A stretch of 64,000 bases of DNA from Escherichia coli phage phiS, in sequence record PP449093.1; one strand, 5' to 3'. The position numbers and the translations under genes are program-made. A model generated the notes under the pieces. It did no database searches. It worked only from the letters and a program-made list of their open reading frames with translations, and had not been told where the DNA came from. Positions 18,218 to 64,000 of this stretch are shown here, piece after piece (within the stretch, counting starts at the first letter, position 1; every line of letters starts with the position of its first letter).

Positions 18218-18225
18218 AAAAGTTG

Positions 18226-18569: not shown

Positions 18570-18582
18570 TTTAAAAAAGTTG

Positions 18583-18611: not shown

Positions 18612-18644
18612 ACACACATACCGAAACGAAATAGGAGAATCAAA

Positions 18645-18812: not shown

Positions 18813-18826
18813 TTTTATAAAAAGTG

Positions 18827-18855
18827 TTGACAGGGGAGGATAACTCCCCTACAAT
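18827..18855 (+). promoter_or_regulatory. PeSL-like early promoter: TTGACA - 17 bp - TACAAT
   Basis: Inverted repeat GGGGAG gataa CTCCCC. Confidence 0.55.
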
Positions 18856-18895
18856 ACAACCATCAAAACGAGATACCACTTAGGAGAATCAAACA

Positions 18896-19680: not shown

Positions 19681-20386
19681 ACTTATATTCTGTAATTTTG
19701 ATGGGTCCGGTATCATGGGTCTAGAATGGGCGAAAGCAGGTCATAAGGTGATCTGCTTTAACGCAGATGATGCGGATCATGGAACATATAAAAAATACAA
19801 CACTCGATTTGAGCATCCCAACCTAACATATGTTAATGCATGGATTGACCTAGATTGGTTGGAAAGGGCAATGGACCTTGAATGGGGCAAACCGGATATG
19901 ATCTTTGCGTTTCCTAGCTGTTCAAATTTAGCGGTTAGTGGCGCTGCACATTTTGAGCGTAAGCGAAAAACTCTAGGTCCACTCATTCAGCATAGAGATG
20001 TTCAAACAGCTAAAATAACCGCTTATTTGGGTGAATGGCTAGGAGTTCCCTACATGATAGAGAATCCTGTAAGCGTTATCTCTAGCATGTGGCGTAAGCC
20101 TGATTATATGTTCCATCCGTGGGAATATGGCGGTTATTTGCCGGAAGATGATAAACATCCTACTTTTCCTGAGTATATTGCCGCCCGTGATATGTACCCG
20201 AAAAGGACTTGCTTATGGACCGGACAAGGCTTTATAATGCCAGAAAAGAAACCGTTGCAGATTAATAAAGGGTACAGTAAACAGCATTCTAAGCTAGGCG
20301 GGAAAGGAACGAAAACAAAGACTATAAGGTCACTTACCCCGCGAGGATTCGCAAAGGCAGTATTTGAAGCAAATAAGGATCTATAA
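19652..20386 (+). CDS. Compact cytosine-C5 methyltransferase-like protein (catalytic domain only)
   Basis: Motif I-like FCNFDGSGIMG, motif IV-like DMIFAFPSCSNLAVSG (PSC instead of canonical PCQ), motif VI-like MIENP; start overlaps 3' end of the HNH-AP2 gene. Confidence 0.55.
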   Translation: MAIMKTTESKLIFCNFDGSGIMGLEWAKAGHKVICFNADDADHGTYKKYNTRFEHPNLTYVNAWIDLDWLERAMDLEWGKPDMIFAFPSCSNLAVSGAAHFERKRKTLGPLIQHRDVQTAKITAYLGEWLGVPYMIENPVSVISSMWRKPDYMFHPWEYGGYLPEDDKHPTFPEYIAARDMYPKRTCLWTGQGFIMPEKKPLQINKGYSKQHSKLGGKGTKTKTIRSLTPRGFAKAVFEANKDL

Positions 20387-20715
20387 TGAGATTGTTTAAG
20401 TATTCGCTAACGTCAAATTACGATAAACAAGGTCATTGCATCCGTTGCCCTGATTGTCATAACCATAACATCGAAAGCAAGATCACCGATCATATTGATG
20501 GACTTTGGTCGCCAGCAAGTGAAATAGAATACTATTGCGCTGATTGTGGAATTGTAGTAGCATATTGGGCATACGGATCATATGATCCATACTTCCAGAT
20601 GGGAGAGCGTTCAATCCCTGCGCTTATCTGGAGAATTAAGAACAATATCCGCCATTCATGGGATGAGTTATTAAAAGATATTGATTTACGTGATGATCCA
20701 TTCAGGAGACTATAA
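20386..20715 (+). CDS. Zinc-ribbon protein (two CxxC pairs)
   Basis: CIRCPDC ... CADCG. Confidence 0.45.
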   Translation: MRLFKYSLTSNYDKQGHCIRCPDCHNHNIESKITDHIDGLWSPASEIEYYCADCGIVVAYWAYGSYDPYFQMGERSIPALIWRIKNNIRHSWDELLKDIDLRDDPFRRL

Positions 20716-20716
20716 C

Positions 20717-21235
20717 ATGAACAGATTAACCCCTAAACGCCGTTACTATACCAATACTAAAAACTTTGTCATCTCTGTTTATGAGGCGTGGTTAGAAGAT
20801 GGCTATATCAACATGAACCCAGATTATCAGCGTCCTTTGGTATGGGACACCGAAAACAAACGTATGTTTATCGAAAACCTGATTAATGATTTTCCGGTTG
20901 GTGCTATCGCAATGGCTAAGATTGATGATGGCTCTCGATATGAGATCGAAATCGTGGACGGTAAACAGCGTTTAAACGCAATATTCTCCTTCATGAAGGA
21001 TGAGTTTAGCATTGCTGGTAATGATGATTCTATGCTGTATTACAGTGATTTTACGCCAGCAGAAAAGCGACGTTTCCGAAATCTCGGACTACCCGCGATA
21101 ATGATGGAAGAGAGCACACGAGAAGACCGATTAGAGTATTTCTACAAAACAAACTTTTTCGGTGTCCCTCAATCGGAAGAACATCGCCAGCATGTGATTT
21201 CCCTATTGCAAGATGAGCAATTAAAAAATAACTAA
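20717..21235 (+). CDS. Standalone DUF262 (ParB/Srx-like NTPase domain) protein
   Basis: PDYQRPLVW ... IVDGKQRLNAI matches the DUF262 signature (DxQR ... DGQQR); AGGAGA RBS before ATG 20717. Confidence 0.55.
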   Translation: MNRLTPKRRYYTNTKNFVISVYEAWLEDGYINMNPDYQRPLVWDTENKRMFIENLINDFPVGAIAMAKIDDGSRYEIEIVDGKQRLNAIFSFMKDEFSIAGNDDSMLYYSDFTPAEKRRFRNLGLPAIMMEESTREDRLEYFYKTNFFGVPQSEEHRQHVISLLQDEQLKNN

Positions 21236-21242
21236 AAAGTTG

Positions 21243-21272
21243 TTGACAGGGGGATCGGTGATCCCCTATAAT
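21243..21272 (+). promoter_or_regulatory. PeSL-like early promoter: TTGACA - 18 bp - TATAAT
   Basis: Inverted repeat GGGGGATC ggt GATCCCC. Confidence 0.55.
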
Positions 21273-21308
21273 GCACACATACCGAAACGAACTACTAAGG
21301 AGTATCAA

Positions 21309-21521
21309 ATGGCTAACATCGAAATCATCATTACCGACGTAACTTATGACCGCATTAACGAAATCGGTACTGCATTACTGGAAGATGAAACAACTCGTAC
21401 CATCAACTACGCAGAATACGTTGAAATGCGTGGCTGGATTAAACGAGTAGGAAAATATACCCTGATTGAAAAAGACTATTCAGGATATACCTTAGAGCAA
21501 TTGCTCGATGGTGCATTATAA
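21309..21521 (+). CDS. Hypothetical protein (70 aa)
   Basis: ATG with GGAG RBS; followed by terminator hairpin. Confidence 0.45.
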   Translation: MANIEIIITDVTYDRINEIGTALLEDETTRTINYAEYVEMRGWIKRVGKYTLIEKDYSGYTLEQLLDGAL

Positions 21522-44890: not shown

Positions 44891-46456
44891 TTAAAAATCC
44901 TCTATTTCATCGGGAGTTTGTTTAAAGCGCGGATCGTTCGCTTCTTCTTCGATCTGTTTCTTCTCGGTGTCCATCTGGTCATCGGTATATTTCAGAATGT
45001 CACGCATCACTGTCTGGTTAGAGAAATATTTACCAATGTAAGGTGTAATACGTTCGATTAGACCGATTCGACGTTCTAAAATTTCCGCGTCTTTAACTTC
45101 TGTATAGTAAGAGTCCCGATGGAAAACCACCTTGATATTATTTATTTCACGATCCCAATCGTCTTCCGTAATTACATTTTTGAGAATCAGATTATATTTC
45201 AGAGGATCGCGCAATACTTCCGAAAACTGTGATTGCAGAGTTCTAATGAATTTCGAAAATTCCAACTCATCGCGAGTAATTTCTGAACCGTCACCACCGA
45301 TCACCATATTAGCATCGGAGAGATTACTACGTGACAATGGCACACGCAACGCTTCATACAACTTACGGTTAAAGTAGCGAATATCATCGATATCACTCAT
45401 ACCGGATGCACCGGGTAAAGTAGTAACGTCGGTGATTGCTTTACCATCTCGACGCTGTAACCAGTAGTCCTCTGTCATTGATAGATTTGCTTGCTGGTTT
45501 TTAAGTTTACCAGTCGATGCATCATAAACAACGCGGTTTTTAAAAGACTGTGCCACTGAGTTCATGTGCTGTGCAGCCTTGCGGTTGTTCATGTTTCCGG
45601 TATCAATAAAGAACACTCGGCGTTCCGGTGCACGCGTGATACGATAAACGACCATTGCGTCTTCCAACAATTTAAGCTGGTTTGCTGGCTTAACCGCCCG
45701 ATGCAAATAACCAATGATATATTTATCATCGCAATCCATCAAGCCGCTGTGAGCGTATGTAATAGCACTACGCGGGATTTTAACGCGACTATTAGGAGAG
45801 AATACTTGACCACCTGCGCAATAAGAGCTATTACCTACAGTGTAGATGAAATATTCTTTCGTTGCTTTATAAATTTTACCTTCCGGTGTGTCTTCTGTAA
45901 TGATCTCTCGAACGTATTCAAGATTTCGTGGATCAAGCTGGCGTAATTCTACGATACCATCTTTTGGATTTTTGCCGATGATTTTATGGAAGAAAATACG
46001 AGAATCGACATACCAGCGACGGAACATATCCTGACCACGCTTATCAAACTGGATAGTGTTTAAAAGATCTTTAAATTCTTCATGAATGCGCTCTTTTACA
46101 GATTCACTAAAGCCAGTCGCCTCAAGATTTAATGAAACAACGTCATGACCGTCTTCGAATACAATAGCATCGTTAACGATATTTTGTACAGCGTTTTCGA
46201 CTTCATGGTTATTCATCAAACCGCGATATGTGTTAACTAATTGCTTAGTTGTACTGATTTTCTGGTCGGTGCTGTAAAATTGCTGGGTAAGAGAGTTCCA
46301 CGCGCTAGCAGGTGAATTATCATTAATTTCTACTTCCGTAGCACCATCATTGTTTTTAGGTGCGGCGATAGACTCTGCTTTATCTTTAATTTGTTCTTCG
46401 TATTTGTCGTTGTCAAAATCAGCCCAACGCGCAAGCATTTTTAATCTACTAAACAT
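44891..46456 (-). CDS. 20: Portal protein gp20
   Basis: 521 aa; FRRWYVDSRIFFHKII and YLHRAVKPANQLKLLEDA blocks as in T4 gp20. Confidence 0.95.
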   Translation of the reverse strand: MFSRLKMLARWADFDNDKYEEQIKDKAESIAAPKNNDGATEVEINDNSPASAWNSLTQQFYSTDQKISTTKQLVNTYRGLMNNHEVENAVQNIVNDAIVFEDGHDVVSLNLEATGFSESVKERIHEEFKDLLNTIQFDKRGQDMFRRWYVDSRIFFHKIIGKNPKDGIVELRQLDPRNLEYVREIITEDTPEGKIYKATKEYFIYTVGNSSYCAGGQVFSPNSRVKIPRSAITYAHSGLMDCDDKYIIGYLHRAVKPANQLKLLEDAMVVYRITRAPERRVFFIDTGNMNNRKAAQHMNSVAQSFKNRVVYDASTGKLKNQQANLSMTEDYWLQRRDGKAITDVTTLPGASGMSDIDDIRYFNRKLYEALRVPLSRSNLSDANMVIGGDGSEITRDELEFSKFIRTLQSQFSEVLRDPLKYNLILKNVITEDDWDREINNIKVVFHRDSYYTEVKDAEILERRIGLIERITPYIGKYFSNQTVMRDILKYTDDQMDTEKKQIEEEANDPRFKQTPDEIEDF

Positions 46457-46514
46457 TATTCACCTCGAATTGGGAGAAATTAAGCGGGGAACTTCTCCCC
46501 GCATGATAATATAT

Positions 46515-47009
46515 TTATTCTACCCAATCGATAGCAAAAGTAACTTCAAACGTTTCAACTTCGTTGTTTTGTTCCCAATCGAGGGTTACTTCACCAACGT
46601 TGGTCGGGAAAATACCGTACAATGTTTTTTCGCTAGTTGATTCGGTGTTACGGTTAAGTTGACGAACAATAGCTTGTTTCTTATATTGTGCAGGAGTTGC
46701 ACCAGTGATCGCCGAACCTGTGCCATGTGTCTGATCGCTCCATGCAACGATAGCATCACGGATCTTGTGTGCGTCATCGTTGAATACAGTGATGGTCCAG
46801 TCGTCGTATACACGGTCGCCAGCGATGTTAATTTTACGGTTTTGATAGCCTACAGCAATTTTTTCTACGGTTGCGGCCGGGACAGTCGCAGCCTTACACA
46901 TCAGCTTAAAGTTTTGCCCCAGATACGGGATCTCAACTTCAAACAGGTTAGGACGAGCAAAATCGCCAGACTCGAAACCGCGTGTAATATCATTCAAATC
47001 GAGTGCCAT
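46515..47009 (-). CDS. 19: Tail tube protein gp19
   Basis: 164 aa; position. Confidence 0.85.
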   Translation of the reverse strand: MALDLNDITRGFESGDFARPNLFEVEIPYLGQNFKLMCKAATVPAATVEKIAVGYQNRKINIAGDRVYDDWTITVFNDDAHKIRDAIVAWSDQTHGTGSAITGATPAQYKKQAIVRQLNRNTESTSEKTLYGIFPTNVGEVTLDWEQNNEVETFEVTFAIDWVE

Positions 47010-47052
47010 AATTGATATTCCTTAATAGAGCGGGGATTTTCTCCCCGCTTGA

Positions 47053-47613
47053 TTAATCTAATAATTCCCAGACGTCAATACTATTTTTAGTGTATTTCTG
47101 TCTATTGTTTTCCCATGTGATTATTTCTAAATTCTTTATGCCGCCTATGATATGCGGCGGGATGTGATTATCAAATCCATAACGTATAGAAACTTTATGG
47201 TCTAGTTGATATGCACCTTTTTTACCACACATTCCTAACTTATCGGCATTTTCCCATTTAGACCATATTGGCTTATGTTTTCGTGTCTCTGAATAAACAC
47301 GGGCTTTATATTCCGCCAATTTATCCTTATCAGTTTTCCATCTTGGGTGATTTTCACCGCTAACGTGAGGGCGATGTGTGTTTTTTGTTTTTAACCCAGA
47401 TTTGCGAGATGCATCTTTCTTTGCACAAGAATAACATAAATGAATATCCCTTTTCATTAAAATTTGAAACTGTCTTTCAAATTTAGACCCGCATTCATCG
47501 CAAATACAATTTACTTTTTTATTACTATTGATCGGTAGATTTTCTACAGGAACTTCAATAATAGAAAATGGTTTAACTTCATATCCTAAATGCTCTGTCC
47601 ATCTTTTAGACAT
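47053..47613 (-). CDS. Free-standing HNH-type homing endonuclease inserted between genes 18 and 19
   Basis: Zn-ribbon CICDECG ... CYSC and HNH-like QLDHKVSIRYGFDNHIPPHIIGG...NLEIITWENN; start moved to ATG 47613 (TATAAATG box and RBS upstream); the longer ORF-track start overlaps gene 18. Confidence 0.6.
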   Translation of the reverse strand: MSKRWTEHLGYEVKPFSIIEVPVENLPINSNKKVNCICDECGSKFERQFQILMKRDIHLCYSCAKKDASRKSGLKTKNTHRPHVSGENHPRWKTDKDKLAEYKARVYSETRKHKPIWSKWENADKLGMCGKKGAYQLDHKVSIRYGFDNHIPPHIIGGIKNLEIITWENNRQKYTKNSIDVWELLD

Positions 47614-47704
47614 TGCTCTTACATTTATAAAGACCGGTTTAGTAGTAATCACATGGGAATCCTCGCTTGTTAATGGGGGGAGTTGACCTCCCCCTTCATT
47701 AATG

Positions 47705-49705
47705 TTATGCTTGGTTGGGTGGACCGATAATTTCGTCAAAATCAGCACCAGTTGCAACAGCCGTGAAGTTCAATAGAATGTAGTTAATCGATTTTGCTGG
47801 TTTGATGAACATACTGGCAACAAATTCGTTACGATCAATTACATCCGGCGTGTTATTCGTGGTGTCGCATTGTACTCGGAAGTCATAAATGCCGCCCAGA
47901 GAGCGAATCGTGCTGAGATATTGCGAAACCTCCATACGGAAGGAAGCGCGAGTAAAGTTATCGTTGTTTTCAAACAGTTTGTATTTGCTTGAATCGCCGA
48001 TATTCTTTTTCAGCATGTTAAACAGACGACGAACGTTAATGCGGTCAAACGGGCTAGGAACAGTCGTAGCGGTTTTATCACCCATCAGGATAAACCCTTC
48101 ACCACCAGCACCGATCACCGGGTTAATTGCGGACTGATACAGACGATCGCGGTGCGCTTTGCGAGGCTCAATTGCCAGTTTAACCACGTTCATGATCTGA
48201 CCACGGTTATAACCTGCCGGACTCATCCACGGCTGGGATACAGCATCAGTACGAGCGCACAGACCAGCAATATCAGCAGCCAACGGAACCCAACGGTTTA
48301 CGTCGTTGTATTTGTCATACTGATATTTGTAGTTACCATCAATAACCGCGTAAGTGGTATTAATGTTCATGTTGTTTTCATTATAGTTTCCTGAACCTTC
48401 GCGCCATGCAATCAGGTTATCAATTGCGGTAGTCACCGGAATATTAACAACAGTGCTACGCGGCGGAGAAACCATTACTAAGCAATCCTGACGCTCATCA
48501 CCGATGGAAACAGCATGTTTCTGTACGGTAGAGAACGCATCGCCTTCGCCAGCACATGCACCAGCGATCAACAGGTTTACGTGAATAGATTCACGTTCAG
48601 CAAACAGATCCCAACCTTGCATCATCGCACCGATGAACGGATCAGCACCAACTCCACCAGTCGTTGCTTCGTTAGCAGAAACACCACCAGCAAGAGAGAT
48701 AATACCACTGAAACCATCTACCCACCCTTGAGCGGTTGCATAGATGTACTGGCTAGAACCACGAGCAAAGAAGTCGTCCATGTAGATAGAATTGCCGTAT
48801 ACGTCTTTATCCCCTTTCAGAGTAGACAGTACATAGGATTCTACCACAACACCATCGCGACGAACAATAAATGCATATTGATTATCATTCTGCGGTGCAT
48901 ATGGAATCAGGTTGCGTGCTGCGGTGCGCTCGCCACCATAAGGATACATGGTCAGATCCGGTGCAGTATTCTTAAACGCACTACGTGCCAGAATTTCAAC
49001 TTCCAGAGAGTTACCAATCTCACCAGCATAGATCGCGCTTACCGCTGGCATGTCATATTTCTTGAGTTTAGTCAAGAAAGTTTGACTTGTGATATTGGCA
49101 CGGGAAGTTTCCAGATCCGTTAAGAGAAGACCGGAATCGGTAACAATTTTAGTTACTGACAGCGCCGCACTACCGTTACCTGACGAAGAAGTGAACTCTG
49201 CCGTCCAACCTCCATCAAGTTCTGGATATACACCGATTGCTTTAGCGTGAGCGATAATTTTACCAGTTGGGATAAATACGCCCTTAACTTTACCATCACC
49301 ATCAACTTTAGTTACTTTACCTGCCGTTTCAATCTCTTGACGGTTATGTTTAATCTTGATGGTATCGCCTACTTTATAGTTTGAACCTTCGTTTGTGATT
49401 TCAAACTCTACGTTACCAGCTAGGGCAGTTGCGTTTTTTGCTTTTTCTTTATTGAGTACACGAACAACACGCAGGTCATTGCCATACTGGAGGAAGTTAG
49501 CCCCGCTCATGAAATAGTCTGCGGTGTTATTATCCGGCTGACCAAATTTATTAACTAATTCAACTTCATTAGTTACTTGAATAATCTGGAAAGCTGGACC
49601 CCATTGGAATTTACCCACCAGTGCCGCGCGACCAGTCGCAGATTGCACAATGGTAGTGGAGAGAGTAGTTTCTTTCGTTTCGAAACCCGGTGATAATAGA
49701 GTCAT
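47705..49705 (-). CDS. 18: Tail sheath protein gp18
   Basis: 666 aa; position. Confidence 0.9.
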   Translation of the reverse strand: MTLLSPGFETKETTLSTTIVQSATGRAALVGKFQWGPAFQIIQVTNEVELVNKFGQPDNNTADYFMSGANFLQYGNDLRVVRVLNKEKAKNATALAGNVEFEITNEGSNYKVGDTIKIKHNRQEIETAGKVTKVDGDGKVKGVFIPTGKIIAHAKAIGVYPELDGGWTAEFTSSSGNGSAALSVTKIVTDSGLLLTDLETSRANITSQTFLTKLKKYDMPAVSAIYAGEIGNSLEVEILARSAFKNTAPDLTMYPYGGERTAARNLIPYAPQNDNQYAFIVRRDGVVVESYVLSTLKGDKDVYGNSIYMDDFFARGSSQYIYATAQGWVDGFSGIISLAGGVSANEATTGGVGADPFIGAMMQGWDLFAERESIHVNLLIAGACAGEGDAFSTVQKHAVSIGDERQDCLVMVSPPRSTVVNIPVTTAIDNLIAWREGSGNYNENNMNINTTYAVIDGNYKYQYDKYNDVNRWVPLAADIAGLCARTDAVSQPWMSPAGYNRGQIMNVVKLAIEPRKAHRDRLYQSAINPVIGAGGEGFILMGDKTATTVPSPFDRINVRRLFNMLKKNIGDSSKYKLFENNDNFTRASFRMEVSQYLSTIRSLGGIYDFRVQCDTTNNTPDVIDRNEFVASMFIKPAKSINYILLNFTAVATGADFDEIIGPPNQA

Positions 49706-49736: not shown

Positions 49737-53345
<3,609 letters not shown>

Positions 53346-54218: not shown

Positions 54219-54959
54219 TCAAAAATTAGCAAAAGGTGAACCAGTGCCATTAATAGGATCAAACGGGTCAATAAAATCTTGTCCTTCGCTTCTGAATTGC
54301 TTATCTTCTTTGTACTGATCTAAGTTGATATCTGTTAACCCGTCCAGATTAGTGATCGGTGCAAGGTCCAGATCCGCAAACTCATCAACATTAATTCCCT
54401 CATTGCGTTGTAATTCTGGTCGCAATTCCTCACCGCTATACACGAATTTCTCTGCAATAATTTTACGCATGGCATTTTTGCCAGCCTGAAAAAACGGCTG
54501 ATATGGCTCTACATATGAGATTTCAAATAAATCATTGCTCATAGGAATGTAAAACAAATCACCGGATTTAGGCTCTTGGTTATCTACTTGATGTTTAAAT
54601 AAATTTGGATTTATAGTTATGGTTAACTCATCATTAGCGGTATAACCGAAAGATTGAAAGAAATTGCCAGCACCCTCATACCCATCGAAAGAATTTATGT
54701 ATGCTGCAAACTTCCACGCCTTAGTGAATTTGCTTTGCACGTCCTCCCCAAATATCATATCAGGTTTCACAAATTCTCTCGGTATGTAGTACATCTCGAC
54801 GCCGCGCATTTGTATAGACTCGGCAACCATAATATCGGCTAGAGTTTGTGTATTTGTATGTGAATTGAAATTCACATAAGGATTGAGAATTTCTGTTTGT
54901 CTAGTGTTCTCATAATCCTTCTGTGACTCCAATCTGGCAAATAATGTAGAGTCAAACAT
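54219..54959 (-). CDS. 14: Neck protein gp14
   Basis: 246 aa; LNPYVNFN and KNEGINV blocks. Confidence 0.75.
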
Positions 54960-55536
54960 AATAAAACTCCTTCCATTTTTCTGCGGTTGACTTTACTCGT
55001 TTCCTCATAGAAGCGGCTGATATCCCATACTTTCTACAACATTCTTGAGTGGTTAAGTATAGAACACCTTCTGCCATAATTTTTCTTGCGCCTTTAAAAT
55101 TTTCCCAATCTCTATTTCTATTTTTTGCCGATTGACTCATTTTATTTTTAGTCTCGTCTGAGTGAGATTCTCTTTTTCGACTGGATGCTTTTTCAGATAT
55201 TTTTCTTCTTGCTTCATTTTTGGTTTCTTCGTCCATGTCATCCCACAAAGAACCTCTATTCACTCCACCCAGAGCAATATTATATGTATCTTCTCTTTCT
55301 ACAAATTCCTTAGTCACTATCTTTTTTTCTGCTAAAGCTAGTTCTTCTAACGTGTTGTGTGTGGAAAGAATAGTTTTTGTGAAGTTCTCTATTCCATACT
55401 TTTTTATTGCTCTTTTAATTCGTTTTCCGCTCCCCCAATAAGAATCCTTTTCTATTGGTTTTCTGGACGTTCTCATACCAACATAGACCATCCCATTTAA
55501 ATTATTTGTTATTTGATATAGATAATAATATGCCAT
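54952..55536 (-). CDS. GIY-YIG homing endonuclease (Seg-like) inserted between genes 13 and 14
   Basis: GIY-YIG core [20 protein letters not shown]...YWGSG; K/R-rich NUMOD3-like repeats; C-terminal HTH-like. Confidence 0.7.
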
Positions 55537-55603
55537 ATGATTCTCCTTTTTATGTTCTCGTCAGATCATACACTAACGAGAACATATTAGTCAACACATT
55601 TAA

Positions 55604-56536
55604 TCAAATCATGAGGATGCCGAACGGAGGATCTAATAATTCTAGTTCTTGTCGCAATTTCTCAATGTCGGCTCGTGCTTCTTCAATGATTCGGATACCA
55701 TCAACAGTGACACCACCGGGTAATTGCAGACCTTGATGTTTAGCCATGATGGACCCCCAAACCTCCTTAGTGAAGGCGGTGGCCATATCTTTCACCCAAC
55801 GGTTATTATATGCGCCCTGCTTGTTCTCACTGATCGGTCCCATGCCAGCAACAATCCCGCTTAAACCAGCAGTTGGGTTATCATAAACGGCGCTAATCCC
55901 GCCAGCGGTAGAACATCCTCCCGCATGAGCATAACCAGCAACCGCACCGATCATATCAGGAACGTCTATATAGCTTTTAACATATAATTCAACAACAATG
56001 AGATCACCTTCTCGGAAGTTTCCTGTAATCTTAAGTTGTCCGTTTGCGCTATTATACCAATAATCTGGAAGCGGATTGAGCATATTTTGCATAGTTGCGC
56101 GATAGCTCATAAGCTGTTCGAAATATCCCAGATCACCGCCCATTGCATTTGGACCATAAAATTTACTACAGCCAGATCCTAAACCGCCATTTACACCCGC
56201 TAAACCCAACAGAAAGTCAGTAAACCACGGATAAACGGCAGTGCCATCCATCGTAGCCGCGCTACCTACGTTTGTTCGAATTATTTTAGTTACTGCGAAT
56301 ACTCCAGAATCGCTTAAATCAAATACCCCGTGTTGCGCTTGCTCTGCACTAACACGAAATACTTTATATCCTTTATTCACACCATCGAAATGATATTCCC
56401 CATAGAGTTCTAGTGCTCTCTGAATACAATCGTAAATCTGGTCTTCTGTGACTTCTACGTTAATTACTGGTGCGCCTAAACGACGCAGAATAGCGTCTTT
56501 TAATTCTCTTGGGTTATTGGTTACATATCCTGACAT
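55604..56536 (-). CDS. 13: Neck protein gp13
   Basis: 310 aa; position. Confidence 0.75.
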
Positions 56537-56582
56537 AATATCACCTATAAACGGAAAAGGGGCTTAACGCCCCTTTAATTTC

Positions 56583-58352
56583 TTATACCGGAGAAATTCC
56601 AAAGAGGAACTCTTTAATTTGTAGCTGTTGCGCTAATGCTTCTTCGGATACGCCCTTAATGCGAATATCGATCCGGTCGCCCTTTTCAATATTTAGGAAA
56701 GCACTGGTAGAATAGCTAATTAAATCATCAGGTCCATAATGACCATTTCGTACCTCATGTACAATCAGACCATTTTTAGCAATACCGACTACGAAAGTAG
56801 CGTTATGTGCCGCATTTACAGAACAACGGAAATCACAACGGAATAAGCCTTTGTCGTTAACCGTAACAAGAGATTCGCTCTTAACCATTCCACGCGCAGG
56901 AACTTCTTCGGTCATATCGTTTAGCGGGATTCCTTTGTATTGATCTTGTCCGTCGAGAGTAATATCAATCTGAGCGGTGTTTTTAAATGCACCAGCCGCC
57001 CATGCGACCTGAACCCATTCCCCGTGCTTACGTAGATAATGGAAACCATCATCAGGAACGTCTGTTACCTTGCTTGCATTTGATGTGCTCAATTCCTTAA
57101 CAGTTTTCACGATCCCATCTTGTTCAAGCTGCGTGCTTCCTTCTGGATTGCCGTACATGTCGCTTGACAGCTTAATAACCCCGGCGGTTAGACCGGAATC
57201 TCGATCTCCGATCATTTGCTCGATATCCTGTACGCTAGCTTCTAGTCGTCCCTGTGTATTTTCTACAATTTTTAGACGACCTGCGATAGTATGACGCTCA
57301 CTATCAGTACCAACTGTGTTAGAGATTCGTGCAACCTCACCACGTAGACCATCAGCACCACTAACACCGACAATAGATTTAAGATCTACAAATTCCCGTT
57401 CTTGATTAGTCAATCGATAATCAATACTTCCAGCGGCTTGAGGACTGCCAATCGTATTTTCCAGAAGAGTTAAACGAGGACGGATACCAGCGTCAACCCC
57501 GTTGACTTCATCATTAAGCTGTGTATAATCAGATTGTAGCTTAGTTACTTTAGTACCGATATCAGGAATTGATTCAAATAGAATCGCTTTCTTTACTTCC
57601 TGAACTTCGTTTGATATACTAGCGATATTGCGAGTATTTGTGCGAAGACGAAGATAAACATTGTCCTGTGTTGCTAGTGATGTGTCGCCTAGCTCGCTTC
57701 GCATTTTGTTAACTTGTTCTGTTAGCTCTCCAACGTCAGAATCTTGCCAGTCGTTTTCTAGTTGGCGGATTCGCTGACCGTGGTTGTTTAATGCTTCCGT
57801 ATTCTGGATAACTCGATATTTGATACCGGAACCGGAACTACCCGGATCTGGAGAGCCGTTGATATTGAAGTTAGGGAAAGCGCCCAATTCTTGTTTGATG
57901 AAAGAAATATCATCATATATTGTTCGTGTACTCGGATCTGCTGCCGGACGAACACCAATTTTCTTTCCTGTCTCTGCCAGTTCATCTACTGTGGTTTGTA
58001 ATGTCCTTGAAGTTTCTCCTAAATTTTCTTCTACAGACTCAACCTTTGAAATAGTTTGATTGACAATATCAATAATACTACCATCAGCAACCGCGCCTAA
58101 AGTAGTTTTAATATCATTAACTGCTGTAACAACTTCGTTAACTTTTGTTACCGTTGTCTTAGAATTTTCATCCAGACGAACAATATTTTCTTGAATAGCA
58201 TAAGGGGCGCGGTTAAGCGTCCCCTCATGTCCTGTTTCTGTGGTTGCTGCGCTTAGACATTCACCATTTTTAATCCAGCTAATAGAATGCTGTCCCTCTC
58301 CAGGGACACCATCGACGTTAGGGATCTTTCGAATGTTTAACTGTTCGATCAT
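56583..58352 (-). CDS. wac: Fibritin (whisker, wac-like) with an extra C-terminal domain
   Basis: Long heptad-repeat region; foldon-like GFHYLRKHGEWVQV; about 140 aa more after it. Confidence 0.6.
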   Translation of the reverse strand: MIEQLNIRKIPNVDGVPGEGQHSISWIKNGECLSAATTETGHEGTLNRAPYAIQENIVRLDENSKTTVTKVNEVVTAVNDIKTTLGAVADGSIIDIVNQTISKVESVEENLGETSRTLQTTVDELAETGKKIGVRPAADPSTRTIYDDISFIKQELGAFPNFNINGSPDPGSSGSGIKYRVIQNTEALNNHGQRIRQLENDWQDSDVGELTEQVNKMRSELGDTSLATQDNVYLRLRTNTRNIASISNEVQEVKKAILFESIPDIGTKVTKLQSDYTQLNDEVNGVDAGIRPRLTLLENTIGSPQAAGSIDYRLTNQEREFVDLKSIVGVSGADGLRGEVARISNTVGTDSERHTIAGRLKIVENTQGRLEASVQDIEQMIGDRDSGLTAGVIKLSSDMYGNPEGSTQLEQDGIVKTVKELSTSNASKVTDVPDDGFHYLRKHGEWVQVAWAAGAFKNTAQIDITLDGQDQYKGIPLNDMTEEVPARGMVKSESLVTVNDKGLFRCDFRCSVNAAHNATFVVGIAKNGLIVHEVRNGHYGPDDLISYSTSAFLNIEKGDRIDIRIKGVSEEALAQQLQIKEFLFGISPV

Positions 58353-59755
58353 TATTGTACCCTTATCATGTAGTTTAATGCAAGGCTTTTAACGCGAGTT
58401 TCGCCAGACGTTCTAACCTGTCTTGCGCTGTCAAAGTTAACAATACTACCCCAATCATCACCACCACCGTTTTTATAGTTCGTGCTCCATTGACCACCTG
58501 TGATGGAAAATGCACCACCAGTCCAACCGCGCCAACGGTTAGCTACAGGGAAGTTACCTGTCATATGTTGCATGGTGTCGTCTTGATAAGTACCAAATCC
58601 ACGACCTGGGTCTAGTCCTCGACCGTGGTCGCATCCTCTAGCAACAAGCCCTCGCATATCGGGTAGAGCAAAGTTGTCTCCGCCATCTCCGCCGTAAGTG
58701 AAACCGATTCGTGAAAATAATACTGGATATTGGTGTTTATTTAACCATTGACCGTTACAGATTTTGAATTGTGCGTGGTCGAAACTGTTAAATGCTGTAA
58801 GAATGATGCCACCAATAGGCATACAAAGACCATCCAGTTCATTTTTAATGATAAACTGGTTTCCGTCGCCTCCGCTATGACGATACACATCACCAGTAAC
58901 GACACCACCACTTAGAGGCAATACACGAGCATTTGCCGACAGTGCTGTGTTTGCCTCGCCTGATCCTGGGTTATCTGTTAGCTTAACAACACCGAATTGT
59001 CCAGTGGTTGCTTTAGTGTTCGCAAATTTTTGTGCTGATACTACTACTGTGTTGTCATTGCCGTCAATCATTTGTTGGGATGAGGCAATTTTAACAGTAC
59101 CCGCCTGATTTTCATTGGCTCTTGCGTTGGAAAATGCATATGGACTAACGGCAAATCCTTCTCTGATAGTACCAGCAAGCGTTTGTTGGCTTGTCGCCAG
59201 TCTAACTAAACCCTCACGGGACTCGGTCGCCGTGTTTTGTTCTGGAATCAACCCAGGAACAATCTGAGCAATAGCAGCGTGCATCTTTTTAGGCGTTACT
59301 GCCATAGTGTCATCGCTACCTATTTTTGCCGCATCCATAGAACAGATTTTAATTGTACCCTGTACGGTTTCCGTTGCTTTCTTGTTCTCGAATACATGGG
59401 TTAATGTATCAGGACCAATTGCAATATTTGGAGTATCGCCCATAGCTTCATCGTTATTAGCATAGCGAGTGATCCCTTTGACAAGTTTTGTTGCGTCCGG
59501 TCTTGACAGCTTAACAGCCAATGTTTTTGGGGTAACAATTTTAGTTCCATCCAACCCATCATCTACTTCTTGTTGAGTAGCAATTTCAGCAATACCCGCT
59601 GTTTCTTCGGTTGCCGTTGGAAGACCTGCAATCGCAAATCCCTGAATAGCGGCTAATGCCGCTTGTACGTTTTTTATATTGCTAGGCCAATTTCCGGTAG
59701 GGTCAAACTTAACATACTGTGCATCGTCTTTTACGTGATTAATAGTGTTATTCAT
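58352..59755 (-). CDS. 12: Short tail fibre gp12
   Basis: N-terminal repeats (ETAGIAEIATQQEVDDG, ETVQGTIKICS, REGLVRLATSQQ, QAGTVKIASSQQ) typical of gp12. Confidence 0.75.
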   Translation of the reverse strand: MNNTINHVKDDAQYVKFDPTGNWPSNIKNVQAALAAIQGFAIAGLPTATEETAGIAEIATQQEVDDGLDGTKIVTPKTLAVKLSRPDATKLVKGITRYANNDEAMGDTPNIAIGPDTLTHVFENKKATETVQGTIKICSMDAAKIGSDDTMAVTPKKMHAAIAQIVPGLIPEQNTATESREGLVRLATSQQTLAGTIREGFAVSPYAFSNARANENQAGTVKIASSQQMIDGNDNTVVVSAQKFANTKATTGQFGVVKLTDNPGSGEANTALSANARVLPLSGGVVTGDVYRHSGGDGNQFIIKNELDGLCMPIGGIILTAFNSFDHAQFKICNGQWLNKHQYPVLFSRIGFTYGGDGGDNFALPDMRGLVARGCDHGRGLDPGRGFGTYQDDTMQHMTGNFPVANRWRGWTGGAFSITGGQWSTNYKNGGGDDWGSIVNFDSARQVRTSGETRVKSLALNYMIRVQ

Positions 59756-59766
59756 AATTTTACACC

Positions 59767-60411
59767 TTACGCAATACGCTTAAAATAAAATAGTGTTGAA
59801 TCAAATTTTTCTTCCGTTCCCAATCTGGACCATGCACCATAACCATAACGAGCAGGGGAATTTATTTCCCCACGAACGCTAATACCATATTTTTCTACGA
59901 CCGTTGCTTCGTGTGCGTTTGAATCAATATACTGAATCTCTATTTTATCATTACCAGTGCCTTTCCGCTCAACTTTAGAGAATAAGATACTTTTGTCTTT
60001 CAATTCAGTAAATTTTGTTGTGACCATTTCGCATAATGCAACATTCGATGTTCCAACATTAACAACAAATGGATAACCCAAAACTTCAATTACAACTTTT
60101 GTCGCGGCTGGATCGTGTTTATTTGTTACCGTTCCAGTGAAAGAAAGAGTTTCTATTTGTCCCGCCGCTTCCGGTGGAGTTGAATTTGTAGTTACCAATA
60201 CATCACCGACATTAAGCATAGAAATGCTATACAAATCATCAATGGCTGATTGTACGTTGTTAATAAAAGAACCTTTGCGAGATTGGTCTACGTTTAATCC
60301 ACCAATTGGGCGAATGTCACCAATAATGGGGTCTTTCGACCCCGGATCGTATGAAATGAATGCTGCGTCGCTAGAAAATACGCTTGCTTTAGAACGTGTT
60401 TTAGAAATCAT
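59767..60411 (-). CDS. 11: Baseplate wedge / short tail fibre attachment protein gp11
   Basis: 214 aa; position. Confidence 0.7.
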   Translation of the reverse strand: MISKTRSKASVFSSDAAFISYDPGSKDPIIGDIRPIGGLNVDQSRKGSFINNVQSAIDDLYSISMLNVGDVLVTTNSTPPEAAGQIETLSFTGTVTNKHDPAATKVVIEVLGYPFVVNVGTSNVALCEMVTTKFTELKDKSILFSKVERKGTGNDKIEIQYIDSNAHEATVVEKYGISVRGEINSPARYGYGAWSRLGTEEKFDSTLFYFKRIA

Positions 60412-60412
60412 A

Positions 60413-62215
60413 TTAACCTACCCTTAACCAGCGATGAACGGTACGATATGGAGGAAGAATACCCATCATTGATGGATCAGCATTTCCAGAATTAACTTTT
60501 ACGATATCCTCTCTATATTTCGTAAACGCTGGACCTGCCGCATCAGGATCAACTTGACAACCACCAATGATAATTGACCCTGTATCGTCTTTCACCAAAA
60601 CACGATCGCTGGATTGTAATTCAGGAATCATATCTTTCTTGATTTGATAGGCAACTTCACCACCAGTACCACCAGCGGTGTGTGTAGGTTGTCCATGAAT
60701 ATCAAGATCGTTATTGTTTAATGCAAAATTCTGGTCGCTGGCATCAGAAGACCAACCAGCAAGAAATTCTCCTTCCGCATACCGAACCCAGATACCAATA
60801 CCCATATATGTCGCTGGGTTAGCTGGGTTATGTGCGTTTTCGTATATCGTGCCGATCGGATGGAAAATATCAAACAGTGCATATATATCCATAATTCGAC
60901 CTGAATACTCTTCTGCCGGACGAGTGTTTTTCTGGCTAGGATTCTGGAAGTCGGTATATTCAATTTGTTTTGTTAAATTAACTTCGTCTTCGTTATTGAG
61001 ATAAATCTTGTCTGCTTTTTCTTTAATTCCGCCGACACCATCCCATTCTAATAGAGTTCCGATATCGTTATTAAACCAACGAATTGTTATAGTATCTCTA
61101 TTGTCCAACGCTTTAGCTAATTTAATCCCTGTTACAATGCTATTCTCATCAAATACCAGTGAATAATCTTCTCCAGACTGTACCCACTGACCGCCAGCAA
61201 GTGCGCAACTCTCTTCGGTTTCTCCGTCAGCACCTTCACAAACAAACGAAGGAAGATCAGCATCACCAGCTTTAATCATTTGAGTACCATTTATTAATAA
61301 CTCAAATGAATTTGGGTTAATTATATCACGTTTACTAACTCCCAAATCAGCATTGGTAAATTCTTTTTTCGTCGATAAATCACCTACCCACACTTCACCC
61401 GGAATAGTTTCTAGTGCTGTCATTCCGGTATCATACACTCTAATTGTGTGTGTGATATAACTAGATCGGAATGATGCAATTCCGTCCATATATGTAATAA
61501 TTTGAACGGTGTCCCCAGCCGAACAAGGAAAACGAAGTTTTATGCTTTTGCCATCAAGTTCAACAAGTGATCCATCCTCACCAATTGAACCGTAGTTAGA
61601 GTCATTACTAAAAGACTTGCCATAATATAAAAGGTTTCCTCGATAATATACTTCAACATTTCGAGTGTTATATGTGTTAGAACCAAATACATTAGGGAAA
61701 TCTGTTTGCCCTTCTGTGGCAATATAAACTTCCTTAGCTACTGTGCTTAGGTCAGACGTGGTGATCGTGTCAACTCGCTTGTTTTCGATATATTCCCAGC
61801 GTCCAGGCGCACAATAAACCAGTTCAACATCCATAAAATCTTTATACAACTCACGGTCGATTGGAGATCCCTTAATGGTATCACCTTGTGCTGGCTTCAA
61901 TGTTACGTTATGTGCAGCCCATGAGCGCCAAACATCACGAAGTTTAATTGTTTTATTGTAATCACTCGCGCTTCCTTTAGGCAATTCAACAGAAACAGCG
62001 TTGTTCGTTGTATTAATTGCCCATGCATCACCAAAATTTGGTTTTAATACTGGTTGTGTGTGAGTTTTCCACGCGCCGGATGCATGGGGGATATCACCGT
62101 CCCCCAGCTTAGTATAAAGTTCAGAAAAGTTGTCATTAATCTTTTGACCGCCTTTTCTTAGATAATCACCTGTACCGTCATCAACAACGTTACCGATATT
62201 AATTAATTGTTTCAT
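60413..62215 (-). CDS. 10: Baseplate wedge protein gp10
   Basis: 600 aa; position. Confidence 0.8.
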   Translation of the reverse strand: MKQLINIGNVVDDGTGDYLRKGGQKINDNFSELYTKLGDGDIPHASGAWKTHTQPVLKPNFGDAWAINTTNNAVSVELPKGSASDYNKTIKLRDVWRSWAAHNVTLKPAQGDTIKGSPIDRELYKDFMDVELVYCAPGRWEYIENKRVDTITTSDLSTVAKEVYIATEGQTDFPNVFGSNTYNTRNVEVYYRGNLLYYGKSFSNDSNYGSIGEDGSLVELDGKSIKLRFPCSAGDTVQIITYMDGIASFRSSYITHTIRVYDTGMTALETIPGEVWVGDLSTKKEFTNADLGVSKRDIINPNSFELLINGTQMIKAGDADLPSFVCEGADGETEESCALAGGQWVQSGEDYSLVFDENSIVTGIKLAKALDNRDTITIRWFNNDIGTLLEWDGVGGIKEKADKIYLNNEDEVNLTKQIEYTDFQNPSQKNTRPAEEYSGRIMDIYALFDIFHPIGTIYENAHNPANPATYMGIGIWVRYAEGEFLAGWSSDASDQNFALNNNDLDIHGQPTHTAGGTGGEVAYQIKKDMIPELQSSDRVLVKDDTGSIIIGGCQVDPDAAGPAFTKYREDIVKVNSGNADPSMMGILPPYRTVHRWLRVG

Positions 62216-63066
62216 GTAGCAACCCCGATTTTAATAGTGTCTACGGCTTTAACTGCTAAACGAATATTTTCGCCAGTAGCCTTATACTCTGCATATACTT
62301 TATCGCCGGAACCGATGAAATAACGAACTTTGTATAGCTCATCTTCTGTCTTCTGCAAAACTGCATATTCCGTCGCATAAACTTTTCCGGCTTTAGAATC
62401 AATCATCAGTAGCGTTTCACTTGAACGCATTTTTGAACCGGATGTATTGCTAGCGGTAGTTAATAATTTGATGGAAACGTATTCTGTTTTTGCGGCAATA
62501 GCAACGTTTGTTGCTACTCCAGTTACGTTAACTGTTTTATCTAATGGCATTGTTGTATCGGTAAACATACTTTCGATACCCAATCGCCATGTTACGCGAC
62601 TACCTTCAACGGCAGTACACCAAACAGTGACTTTTGAGAAAGGTTGAGTTATTACCGCGTCACCTGAATACCCGCTAATAGAATCACCTGCTTGAGTTCG
62701 AATATTGAGCGGTGTCGTCGTTGAAAAGCTACCGTTACTATTTATGAATACAACACCCTCACCAACCTTTGCTTTAGGTAGAATAGCAATAAGTGCGCCT
62801 TGAGTTGTATCGATATCGTGTAGACTCCCAATCTCAACAGCGGAACCAGCGTAGCTTTGACGTGGATGTTTCTGATAGTATCCGGTTGCATGAATAACCA
62901 TTCTTCCCACGCCGTGGTCTATGTCTTTAAACCGTTGATCAGCGAATGCGTCATAGATTGAATCAAAGTTATCGTTAATTTTATTACCGCCATCATATAA
63001 GATATCGCCAGTCGATGGATTGCCGACAGTACCTGTGTCTATTCTTTTCTTTGGAACTTGTGCCAT
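62212..63066 (-). CDS. 9: Baseplate wedge / long tail fibre connector gp9
   Basis: N-terminal IDTGTVGNPSTGDILYDGGNKINDNF and C-terminal KIGVA resemble T4 gp9. Confidence 0.8.
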   Translation of the reverse strand: MAQVPKKRIDTGTVGNPSTGDILYDGGNKINDNFDSIYDAFADQRFKDIDHGVGRMVIHATGYYQKHPRQSYAGSAVEIGSLHDIDTTQGALIAILPKAKVGEGVVFINSNGSFSTTTPLNIRTQAGDSISGYSGDAVITQPFSKVTVWCTAVEGSRVTWRLGIESMFTDTTMPLDKTVNVTGVATNVAIAAKTEYVSIKLLTTASNTSGSKMRSSETLLMIDSKAGKVYATEYAVLQKTEDELYKVRYFIGSGDKVYAEYKATGENIRLAVKAVDTIKIGVAT

Positions 63067-63141
63067 TGTTTAATTCCTCATGTTATGATGTATTATTTAT
63101 AAAATACATACAAAAAAGCCGCCCACAAGGACGGCTTATAA

Positions 63142-63981
63142 TTAAATGTCAAACAAATCTGAGAGCGTCCCAGACTCGCTTTCCTGTTTCGGTAAGGTAA
63201 TATCCTTACTTTCTTCTATTTGTTCGTTAGGACGTGATTTAGGCGCTTCTACGGCTTCTTTCTCGTAATACCGAACCTCAACCACTTCTGTTAAAACGTT
63301 GGTACTATGCCATTCATCGCGATAGATTGATGTATCGATCCCGCATCCGGCGTAAGTCACCAAACCAGTTTGTTTGCTCCATTTTAGATATTTATTAGAC
63401 TTCACTGATTCATCATAATAAGGTCTGCCGGAATAAGCAAACCCAGCGGAACTAGCAGGAACAATAAAATAACCTACATCGGCAAACTTCTGGCCTAACG
63501 TCATAACCTTAAATTCAAACTCACCGCCAGTATATTCAAATACATCCTTTGTGTCTGTAGTATTGATTTTACCGAAAGGTGGATTGCTGATCACCACATC
63601 GAATTTTTCGTTTGACTCAAATTCGAATACATCGCTGGTGATCCATTCTGCCTCCGGTAATAGTCGCTTGCCAATCAGCGCAAATTCTGGATTGAGTTCG
63701 ACGCATACGATCTTTTCTGGCTTACAACGATGTAACATACAAAAAGATAAGCGACCGATCCCCGCACAAAGATCTAATACTTTTCCGGTGCAATATGCAT
63801 CAATGGTAAAATCCCAGGCAAGCCATTCTGGGGTAAAGAATGCACCGGAACCACCTAGTCCATCGCCATGATAGTTGTTATAGCAAAATTCTTTTTCTTC
63901 AAATGTCAATGGACGATCTGAATTAATCAACTCCATCACCCGATCGTGTAATTTTTGTTCTTGTTTAGAAAGTCGTGCCAT
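63142..63981 (-). CDS. Class I SAM-dependent methyltransferase, gamma-class amino-MTase-like (candidate DNA N6-adenine/N4-cytosine MTase)
   Basis: Motif order X-I-IV: FFTPEWLAWDF, VLDLCAGIGRLS, VISNPPFGK; acidic C-terminal tail. Confidence 0.55.
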   Translation of the reverse strand: MARLSKQEQKLHDRVMELINSDRPLTFEEKEFCYNNYHGDGLGGSGAFFTPEWLAWDFTIDAYCTGKVLDLCAGIGRLSFCMLHRCKPEKIVCVELNPEFALIGKRLLPEAEWITSDVFEFESNEKFDVVISNPPFGKINTTDTKDVFEYTGGEFEFKVMTLGQKFADVGYFIVPASSAGFAYSGRPYYDESVKSNKYLKWSKQTGLVTYAGCGIDTSIYRDEWHSTNVLTEVVEVRYYEKEAVEAPKSRPNEQIEESKDITLPKQESESGTLSDLFDI

Positions 63982-64000
63982 TATTTAACCTTTGCTGTGA

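Follow-up and report, generated by a model that had tools for sequence, protein, structure and literature searches.

Homing endonucleases of the I-HmuI / I-TevIII class and the Mob proteins of phage T4 combine a beta-beta-alpha-metal nuclease with a separate DNA-binding module, and their genes are found sporadically, within or between conserved phage genes. The I-HmuI active site uses Asp/His/Asn/Asn. Small HNH nicking endonucleases, represented by Geobacter Gme HNH (4h9d) and phage GVE2 HNH (5h0o), are also among the closest known systems. Mob enzymes nick their substrates, and RNA structures that hide the ribosome-binding site (RBS) hold down the T4-type endonuclease genes I-TevI, I-TevII, I-TevIII, segB and Aeh1 mobE (PMC2988022); the translational control of free-standing endonucleases is named in a field review as poorly understood (PMC2988022). 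Here we analyze an open reading frame (ORF) that lies between the tail sheath gene (gene 18) and the tail tube gene (gene 19) of Escherichia coli phage phiS, within a stretch of 64,000 nucleotides (nt) of sequence record PP449093.1 that is referred to below as the window.

The predicted product of this ORF likewise joins a beta-beta-alpha-metal nuclease domain to a separate, putatively DNA-binding module; the gene likewise sits between conserved phage genes with a sporadic distribution, and the enzyme would be expected to nick or cut the endonuclease-free allele. As in the I-TevI, I-TevII, I-TevIII, segB and Aeh1 mobE hairpins, an RNA structure is predicted over the initiation region of a potentially harmful nuclease gene. 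From sequence comparison, structure models and analogy with these systems, we estimate a probability of about 70% that the ORF is a free-standing homing endonuclease gene of the T6 ORF19.1 family, composed of a zinc-finger module and an HNH effector, moving by homing and limited in its expression by fold-back of the mRNA.

An insert between genes 18 and 19 carries the ORF

The window and Escherichia phage RB49 (Krischvirus, Straboviridae) are collinear; their nucleotide identity is ~96-98% for the greater part of the window, which by sequence belongs to an RB49-like Krischvirus. The initial annotation had proposed an HNH-type gene inserted between genes 18 and 19 and had suggested a comparison with endonuclease-free relatives. 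That comparison defined the insertion, at 47066-47704 of the window in place of 17 base pairs (bp) of the RB49 spacer, and the region is laid out as follows.

47705-49705, minus strand: gene 18, tail sheath (Pfam sheath domains, best E 3e-38)
47066-47704: insert relative to RB49, 639 bp, GC content 35.4% (45.1% in genes 18 and 19)
47660-47664, minus strand: Shine-Dalgarno (SD) sequence GAGGA, 7 nt upstream of the GTG start
47053-47652, minus strand: putative endonuclease ORF of 199 amino acids (aa), GTG start at 47650-47652, TAA stop at 47053-47055, PHROG 5104
46515-47009, minus strand: gene 19, tail tube (PF06841)

By local alignment with RB49, the spacer that lost these 17 bp is 73 nt long, and the limits of the insert fall directly after the gene 18 stop codon and at the stem-loop ahead of the gene 19 RBS. 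The GC content of the ORF itself is 33.5%, compared with 45.1% in genes 18 and 19, and the other inserted endonuclease genes of the window resemble it (34-38%). The insert was absent from all 58 phage records that match at ≥90% identity (57 at 95-99%, one at 90-95%), which gave a two-piece match pattern; none of the 423 matching phage records spanned the insert or covered 80% of the query. No protein more than 60% identical to the ORF was found in phage records, and IMG/VR gave no close relatives. The same ORF is present in the same place, at 98.5% nucleotide identity, in one metagenomic ENA contig (L005), with four non-synonymous and five synonymous codon differences from the window copy. The proposed insertion of an HNH-type gene is supported by the absence in relatives, the composition, and the fold and motif of the protein, and further by the modular protein, a phylogeny at odds with the flanks and a linked recoded tract in gene 18, as described below.

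The initial annotation started the gene at an ATG at 47613 (186 aa). The ORF is intact and ends at 47053 as proposed, but this start probably leaves it 13 codons (39 nt) short, the likely true start being the GTG at 47650-47652. The GTG is preferred because GAGGA is positioned 7 nt upstream, because the N-terminus aligns with the family, and because a metagenomic copy (P0001, 98% identical) was called as 199 aa. Translation from the GTG gives (V/M)-I-T-T-K-P-V, which aligns with the M-I-I-S-K-x-V conserved in all homologues. A 234-aa ORF with a TTG start (47757) that overlaps gene 18 was ruled out, since family conservation starts at the GTG. Gene callers that prefer ATG will mis-start members of the ORF19.1 family.

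In PHROGs, residues 3-185 matched phrog_5104, which is annotated as 'unknown function' (E 2.7e-65). Full-length homology, the two-domain plan and the sheath/tube position were all found, and on these comparisons the ORF is a member of the T6 ORF19.1 / PHROG 5104 family; it adds one more member to this known, uncharacterised family and extends the family to a new host genus. No experimental characterisation of the family or functional publication on it was found in the literature, and its database labels are hypothetical, or occasionally HNH or homing endonuclease. A profile search of 1.84 billion cluster representatives returned 105 proteins at E ≤ 1e-30 and 1,293 at E ≤ 1e-10. Homologues are located between the sheath and tube genes in RB3, S16, PKO111, AbTZA1, CHI14, phiM7, VmeM-32, EnA02 (as 'gp19.1'), Ursula and pSs-1; shorter stretches show an adjoining sheath gene in UP19 and DCP80 and an adjoining tube gene in vB_EcoM_005. 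Eleven metagenomic contigs have the same arrangement, three of them with a truncated upstream ORF that has no Pfam call. Among 25 full-length IMG/VR matches, the sheath gene is upstream in 24/24 and the tube gene downstream in 21/22 with enough sequence. Full-length members thus occupy this junction in all lineages that were examined. The initial annotation had also asked whether relatives would reveal a conserved structural gene at this position; the homologues are instead sporadic and are not structural proteins.

The C-terminal domain is also found alone in other phage neighbourhoods, fused to NUMOD3, to a resolvase-type helix-turn-helix (HTH_7), to DUF7487 or to other N-terminal modules. 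In Acinetobacter phage 133 (L028, 2169-4246), an ORF with a C-domain of this clade splits rnlA into rnlA-A and rnlA-B. Two further IMG/VR ORFs (L083, 2048-2641; L087, 2045-2650) share only the C-domain with the ORF19.1 family; they are flanked by ORFs that at their N-termini resemble T4 gp47 and gp46, the recombination nuclease subunits, as judged by eye from the first residues only.

A zinc-finger domain and a predicted HNH-like nuclease domain

Two domains are predicted in the protein, encoded at the following positions.

47425-47502, minus strand: codons of a treble-clef-like Cys4 zinc finger (C51, C54, C73, C76), recognized by invariant columns, a weak DUF4379 match and a match to mS66
47095-47211, minus strand: codons of a beta-beta-alpha-metal (HNH-like) core, residues 148-186

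C51, C54, C73 and C76 are invariant in an alignment of 26 homologues, as are Y148-Q149-x-D151-H152, N174-L175, W180, N183 and K186. Within the HNH-like core, D151-H152 is placed on strand 1, N174 before strand 2 and N183 on the helix, with a spacing of 22 residues from H to N and nine from N to N. The D-H, N and N residues are invariant across the 26 full-length members together with 34 diverse C-domains (D52-H53, N75 and N84 in C-domain numbering), and when 63 IMG/VR loci were added to give a wider C-domain alignment, the invariant set shrank to G, Q-L-D-H, N and N. AlphaFold gave a mean confidence (pLDDT) of 84.5 for the whole protein and, for residues 100-199 alone, a pLDDT of 88.5 and a predicted template modelling score (pTM) of 0.77; both models have D-H at the end of a strand, N-L opening the next strand and N183 on the following helix. 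The models thereby contain the beta-beta-alpha-metal fold of the HNH superfamily and its catalytic residues, namely Asp-His at strand 1, Asn before strand 2 and the helix Asn. The top fold-search matches are nucleases, with the small HNH nickases 4h9d and 5h0o as the closest solved structures; Foldseek against the PDB returned nothing below E = 1.

No HNH match for the window protein was obtained in Pfam, NCBIfam or PHROGs. Pfam and NCBIfam gave only sub-threshold zinc-finger and zinc-ribbon matches (DUF4379, 'probable treble clef'), and PDB sequence profiles matched the N-domain to mS66 and zinc fingers. Among relatives, Pfam HNH (PF01844) is matched by 3/34 C-domains (best E 2.6e-5), HNH_4 by 2/34, and one of the 26 full-length members reaches HNH_4 at E 0.078. 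Leucine-rich-repeat matches of the C-domain to PDB sequence profiles were rejected as spurious because I-P-x-E-I-G-x-L-x-N-L-x-x-L resembles a leucine-rich-repeat unit. From modelled structure, motif and indirect sequence matches, we accept the C-domain as a predicted nuclease domain of the HNH superfamily (H-N-N type); the N-terminal Cys4 zinc-finger domain presumably binds DNA. The earlier description of the gene as HNH-type is upheld by fold, by motif and by the matches of relatives, but no family model detects HNH in the window protein itself.

The start codon is predicted to pair with codons of the HNH motif

A repeat scan detected an inverted repeat of 22 nt, complementary at 20/22 positions, whose arms are separated by 506 nt and link the start-codon region with the HNH-motif codons.

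47638-47659, minus strand: 5' arm, UUCCCAU-GUG-AUU-ACU-ACU-AAA, containing the start codon and codons 2-5 (inverted repeat I1)
47110-47131, minus strand: 3' arm, UUUAGAAAUAAUCACAUGGGAA, codons (N)-L-E-I-I-T-W-E of the HNH motif

The predicted helix is 17-22 bp long, with partners ~510 nt apart. It was found in 16/18 GTG-start homologues, with duplex energies of -20 to -34 kcal/mol: the window, L005, T6, RB3, SHBML-50-1, pSs-1, S16, Ursula, PKO111, UP19 and EnA02, together with DCP80 and the IMG/VR loci L029, L099, L100 and L103. All 16 of the ATG-start homologues gave duplexes of -15 kcal/mol or weaker. The window duplex has an energy of -27.0 kcal/mol, compared with -18.8 +/- 2.4 for shuffles; none of the 55 other long ORFs of the window has a corresponding duplex as strong.

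Covariation between the arms was tested on an ungapped alignment of 15 distinct sequences, using 500 shuffles and, as a control, the partner slid by 1-3 columns. Paired cells amounted to 84.4%, compared with 33-45% in the slid controls; four pairs (eight cells) had changes on both sides, and the covariation score was 0.123 versus 0.067 +/- 0.008. None of the 500 shuffles reached any of the observed helix values for pairing, double changes or covariation score. Compensatory changes include A-to-U at position -1 with ACU-to-ACA in two Krischvirus copies and AUU-to-AUC with GAA-to-GAG in S16, PKO111 and L099. In DCP80 three adjacent pairs are changed on both sides, which converts Ser4 to Asp and the motif Glu to Ser. 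Compensatory substitutions thus exceed chance, as expected of conserved pairing in a structured RNA element. When whole mRNAs were folded, the helix was present in the minimum free energy (MFE) structure of 13/13 members, with a start-codon pairing probability of 1.00. Codons for identical residues have a nucleotide identity of 0.89 in the 3' arm and 0.74 in the 5' arm, compared with 0.53 elsewhere in the C-domain. Taken together, covariation and predicted folding suggest that the helix probably represses translation by fold-back. As far as we found in the literature, a distal masking partner inside catalytic-motif codons has not previously been described.

Signs of lateral transfer and a recoded patch in gene 18

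The gp18 and gp19 proteins of T6 and RB3 are 99% identical, but their ORFs share only 57% identity, with most of the divergence in the N-terminal half and nearly identical 3' halves. The T6-type ORF is present in 70/655 Tequatrovirus records, and the gene is missing from T4, T2 and RB14, which have an uninterrupted spacer, as well as from RB49. Differences per 100 nt over 48761-48162 of gene 18 are 1,1,0,0,1,0 between the window and RB49 and 8,8,4,1,5,4 between the window and L005. The window is therefore nearer RB49 than L005 over most of gene 18, yet it has the insert and the adjacent stretch in common with L005. Gene 18 of L005 also contains a ~300-nt block, aligned to window 49361-49062, that is ~30% divergent from both the window and RB49, although the sequence around it is nearly identical; judged from this alignment, the block is mosaicism in the sheath outer domains. 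The T6-type copy in Pu-Krd-SF2 (L018, ORF from 460) is interrupted near codon 89 by a premature stop (CAA to TAA), is annotated as 88 aa and appears to be decaying.

The 3' end of gene 18 next to the insert is recoded.

47705-47786, minus strand: recoded patch at the 3' end of gene 18, 13 substitutions relative to RB49 in 82 nt

These last 82 nt contain 13 of the 50 differences between gene 18 of the window and that of RB49 (binomial P = 8e-8). Nine of the substitutions are clustered in the 25-nt core at 47762-47786, which encodes I-N-Y-I-L-L-N-F, and the patch as a whole changes only three amino acids. L005 has the same patch; as for a donor, no phage record exceeds 88.5% identity over the full length of 47705-47800. 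In Tequatrovirus, the homologous 33 nt exist as three sharply distinct haplotypes within 99%-identical surroundings, with one haplotype in T6-type carriers and another in RB3 and SHBML-50-1. The simplest reading of these sequences is that the patch may be the endonuclease target or a co-conversion tract, in which case endonuclease-free alleles with carrier-like patches would be resistant. The locus displays features expected of a homing gene: presence/absence polymorphism, a phylogeny discordant with its flanks, foreign composition and an adjacent recoded tract.

Transcription and local signals

Four local elements were evaluated around the ORF.

49737-49744, minus strand: likely late promoter TATAAATA, upstream of gene 18
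47670-47702, minus strand: GC-rich 13-bp stem-loop UUAAUGAAGGGGGAG-GUCAA-CUCCCCCCAUUAA, between the gene 18 stop and the SD
47622-47629, minus strand: late-promoter-like box TATAAATG, in ORF codons 8-11, 7/8 match
47029-47049, minus strand: stem-loop AGCGGGGA-GAAAA-UCCCCGCU, ahead of the gene 19 RBS

The initial annotation credited the gene with its own late promoter. The box concerned, TATAAATG, is located inside coding sequence, and its 7/8 match does not rise above chance (11 copies of TATAAATR in the window, 10.7 expected). Copies just upstream of late genes 18, 22 and 23 read TATAAATA, and TATAAATG is probably not a promoter. The gene 18/19 interval lacks TATAAATA both in the window and in RB49, so transcription of the endonuclease ORF and of gene 19 presumably depends on read-through from the late promoter of gene 18 (49737-49744). 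A scan of 46400-47900 gave no sigma-70 promoters or intrinsic terminators above shuffled expectation.

The stem-loop at 47670-47702 has no U-tract, leaves the SD uncovered, is present in the centroid fold and was not scored as a terminator; the order hairpin, SD, GTG is also found in T6, RB3 and S16. No local structure masking the SD or the start was seen in a 126-nt fold (z = -0.5), and the only Rfam match, rli48 at E 0.22, is noise. The stem-loop at 47029-47049 is retained from the uninterrupted RB49-type spacer. Near-identical GC-rich stem-loops (GCGGGGA-loop-UCCCCGC) are located at 46478-46507, after gene 19, and at 47024-47053, before gene 19, and a U-tract is present only in the one after gene 19. 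The pair looks like a repeated intergenic hairpin cassette of the late region.

A model for homing with self-limited expression, and alternative explanations

By analogy with T4 Seg and Mob, a related phage whose 18/19 junction is endonuclease-free would have that junction nicked or cut by the enzyme during a mixed infection. The site would most probably fall among the gene 18 codons S-I-N-Y-I-x-L-N-F, which carriers have recoded and which lie 45-85 nt ahead of the stop. T4-type recombinational repair would then copy the gene and ~80 bp of gene 18 into the recipient, and homing of this kind would have been the route of the element into an otherwise RB49-like genome. The patch, the interrupted spacer or the two together would protect carriers. 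On late gene 18 read-through transcripts, the weak GTG would have a brief chance of initiation; after the 3' part has been transcribed, the HNH-motif codons would pair with the start region and close it, keeping the enzyme scarce. A wider picture is more tentative, with a chance that we would place slightly below even: ORF19.1 may constitute a Pfam-invisible HNH homing clade at the T4-superfamily sheath/tube junction, the enterobacterial GTG branch of which carries a self-limiting switch, with the patch marking the target in an ongoing contest between target and endonuclease.

Several observations weigh against the model of homing with self-limited expression. The window helix contains two mismatches and taken alone is moderately unusual, with 3/500 shuffles as good; the helix sequences are related to one another, and the structure was derived from the same sequences; and covariation cannot separate RNA pairing from pairing at the DNA level. 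The H-N-N motif is present without the flanking Cys pairs of many HNH enzymes. RB14, T2 and CAM-21 carry carrier-type patches without the gene, and sb1 has the intact gene with a T4-type patch. These four rule out strict linkage of patch and gene in Tequatrovirus, and the sb1 ORF was checked and is intact, which rules out a frameshift as the explanation of that exception. Deep divergence of the ORF roughly follows that of gp18 (76% versus 76% between S16 and PKO111), and the sheath/tube junction is also kept in phages with sheath proteins only ~39% identical. Since the junction is kept so faithfully and divergence of the ORF parallels that of gp18, long vertical residence with losses explains part of the pattern; the family has probably been long resident at the junction, with local transfers, replacements and losses.

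With respect to the helix, the inverted repeat might act in DNA, as an operator pair or as a hairpin in recombination or replication, or might be a frozen accident of two conserved peptide motifs. Pairing of single-stranded DNA would fit the covariation equally well, MIISK and LEIIT happen to be reverse-complement compatible, and many carriers are related by recent recombination, as in the nearly identical 3' halves of the T6 and RB3 ORFs. We nevertheless consider this unlikely, given compensatory changes in at least three lineages, with amino acids altered on both sides in DCP80, and the excess synonymous conservation in the arms. The helix also tracks the rarer GTG start (16/18 GTG-start members, 0/16 ATG-start members) and appears in all 13 whole-mRNA MFE structures, and a cruciform with a 500-bp spacer is implausible.

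Somewhat less weight is given to the explanation that the ORF is an old, vertically inherited accessory gene that is often lost, a domesticated nuclease or DNA-binding factor that no longer homes and serves, for example, in competitor exclusion or DNA processing. The nearest solved structures, 4h9d and 5h0o, are small HNH nickases that we take to be terminase-associated, and the parallel divergence of ORF and gp18 would fit such a history. So would the breadth of homologues at the sheath/tube junction, in Tequatrovirus, Gelderlandvirus, Jiaodavirus, Karamvirus, Dhakavirus, Gaprivervirus, Winklervirus, Hadassahvirus, Emdodecavirus, a Vibrio phage and several environmental lineages, and HNH genes beside essential modules can be domesticated (PMC10448857). 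Yet no close Krischvirus relative and only a minority of Tequatrovirus records carry the gene, and the window shares the insert with L005 despite being nearer RB49 in gene 18. The 57% identity of the T6 and RB3 ORFs between 99%-identical flanks, the AT-rich foreign composition, the one pseudogene copy and the occurrence of the nuclease module at other loci with other DNA-binding modules likewise favour a homing gene.

Homing endonuclease genes commonly decay after fixation, and the premature stop in Pu-Krd-SF2 is an instance within the family. That the window copy is itself an inactive, hitch-hiking remnant is nonetheless improbable: its helix has two mismatches and its nine codon differences from L005 are too few to demonstrate purifying selection, but the ORF is full length and keeps all invariants (C51, C54, C73, C76, D151, H152, N174 and N183) together with the SD, the GTG start and the helix. 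A zinc-finger nucleic-acid-binding regulator, for instance of gene 19 or late mRNA, in which D-H/N/N is structural only, is very improbable: it would suit a gene between two very highly expressed structural genes whose only direct sequence matches are to zinc-finger/zinc-ribbon families and ribosomal protein mS66 and in whose product no family model finds HNH, but the invariant residues coincide exactly with those that serve catalysis and metal binding in HNN-type enzymes and occupy the proper secondary-structure elements, the top fold matches are nucleases, some members reach Pfam HNH, and relatives join the domain to NUMOD3, a typical homing-endonuclease module.

Other endonuclease-like genes and mosaic regions of the window

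The initial annotation counted at least seven endonuclease-like genes in 64 kb, and seven were confirmed by domain scans. In addition to the ORF between genes 18 and 19, these are as follows.

3892-4566: Mob-like gene with NUMOD3, absent from RB49 at this position
11654-12271: NUMOD4 + HNH_3 gene, absent from RB49 at this position
14823-15299: HNH gene, in common with RB49 (p212)
19144-19680: HNH_3 gene, absent from RB49 at this position
54952-55536: SegE-type GIY-YIG gene with an I-TevI-like DNA-binding domain, absent from RB49 at this position
50802-52085: gene 17 intein insert with a PD-(D/E)xK nuclease, absent from RB49 at this position

Five of the seven endonuclease-like genes and the gene 17 insert are absent from RB49 at those positions; RB49 is listed with only two such genes (PMC2993671).

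Gene 17 (large terminase, 49740-52851) is split into two ORFs by the 1284-bp insert at 50802-52085. ORF A (51100-52851, minus strand) encodes the N-terminal part of gp17, an intein block-A-like motif, a Cys-rich segment and the PD-(D/E)xK nuclease (TnsA-like_N 1.6e-8, Phage_endo_I 6e-7), followed by a stop codon; ORF B (49740-51119) encodes the rest of the Hint domain ('...LECSENHKL...VESHN|C') and then the C-terminal part of gp17. The arrangement corresponds to the fractured gene 'Terminase', whose unusual split was described by Dassa et al. 2009 (PMC2677866). The two-ORF form is present at 97-98% identity in six Krischviruses, and the nuclease part of the insert is found at ~49% identity beside terminase genes in other T4-like genera. 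L005 has a different gp17 intein at 1104-3920, which is contiguous (938 aa) and of LAGLIDADG type; its insertion point follows SRQLGK, in the Walker A region, instead of IYIDE.

Two further regions depart from RB49. Window 55602-63998 is only 83% identical to its RB49 counterpart, which extends from gene 13 back to about gene 9 and includes neck, whisker, baseplate and short-fibre genes. Identity elsewhere is 95-98%, and the block may be an exchanged adsorption/host-range module. Window 15292-21309 is rearranged, with short out-of-order matches of 81-98% identity and small ORFs of unknown function.

Comparison with known systems

One more free-standing homing endonuclease in a T4-like phage is expected and ordinary. 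The analysis places a widespread 'hypothetical' family among the HNH homing endonucleases and gives annotators a usable name for it. Together with its recoded patch and with natural relatives that are 98% identical but endonuclease-free (RB49 and others), the gene offers a ready experimental system in which homing, co-conversion and target escape could be followed in a structural-gene region. If the pairing of start codon and catalytic codons is true, it is a new way of restraining a selfish nuclease.

Compared with I-HmuI and Mob, the domain order of the window protein is reversed, with the zinc finger N-terminal and the nuclease C-terminal; Pfam HNH_3, NUMOD1, NUMOD3 and NUMOD4 are not matched; and the ORF19.1 nuclease domain is a separate clade barely reached by Pfam models. 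Membership of the T4 Mob family (MobA-E) was rejected because of this reversed order and the missing HNH_3/NUMOD match, and the true Mob-like and HNH_3 genes of the window do match in the same scans.

Fold-back inhibition of hok mRNA and a long-distance interaction in MS2 RNA are analogues of the masking helix. The known T4 hairpins are local and are relieved by a late promoter that starts inside them (PMC2988022). The ORF19.1 helix differs in that its partner is ~510 nt downstream in the same ORF and in that the start codon is masked, not the SD; unlike in the T4 hairpins, promoter-based relief is not apparent. The fold-back helix is accordingly a new variant of a known regulatory theme.

Acj133p227 of Acinetobacter phage 133 shares the C-terminal nuclease domain (36% identity over residues 108-199), and its depositors remarked on its similarity to T6 ORF19.1, but it has another N-terminal half and another target, the RNA ligase gene rnlA. 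T6 ORF19.1 is ~51% identical to the window ORF over its full length and likewise has the two-domain plan, the 18/19 position, the hairpin-SD-GTG layout and the long-range helix; it differs in being found in a different host genus, and within Krischvirus no sequenced isolate of the phage collection carries the gene.

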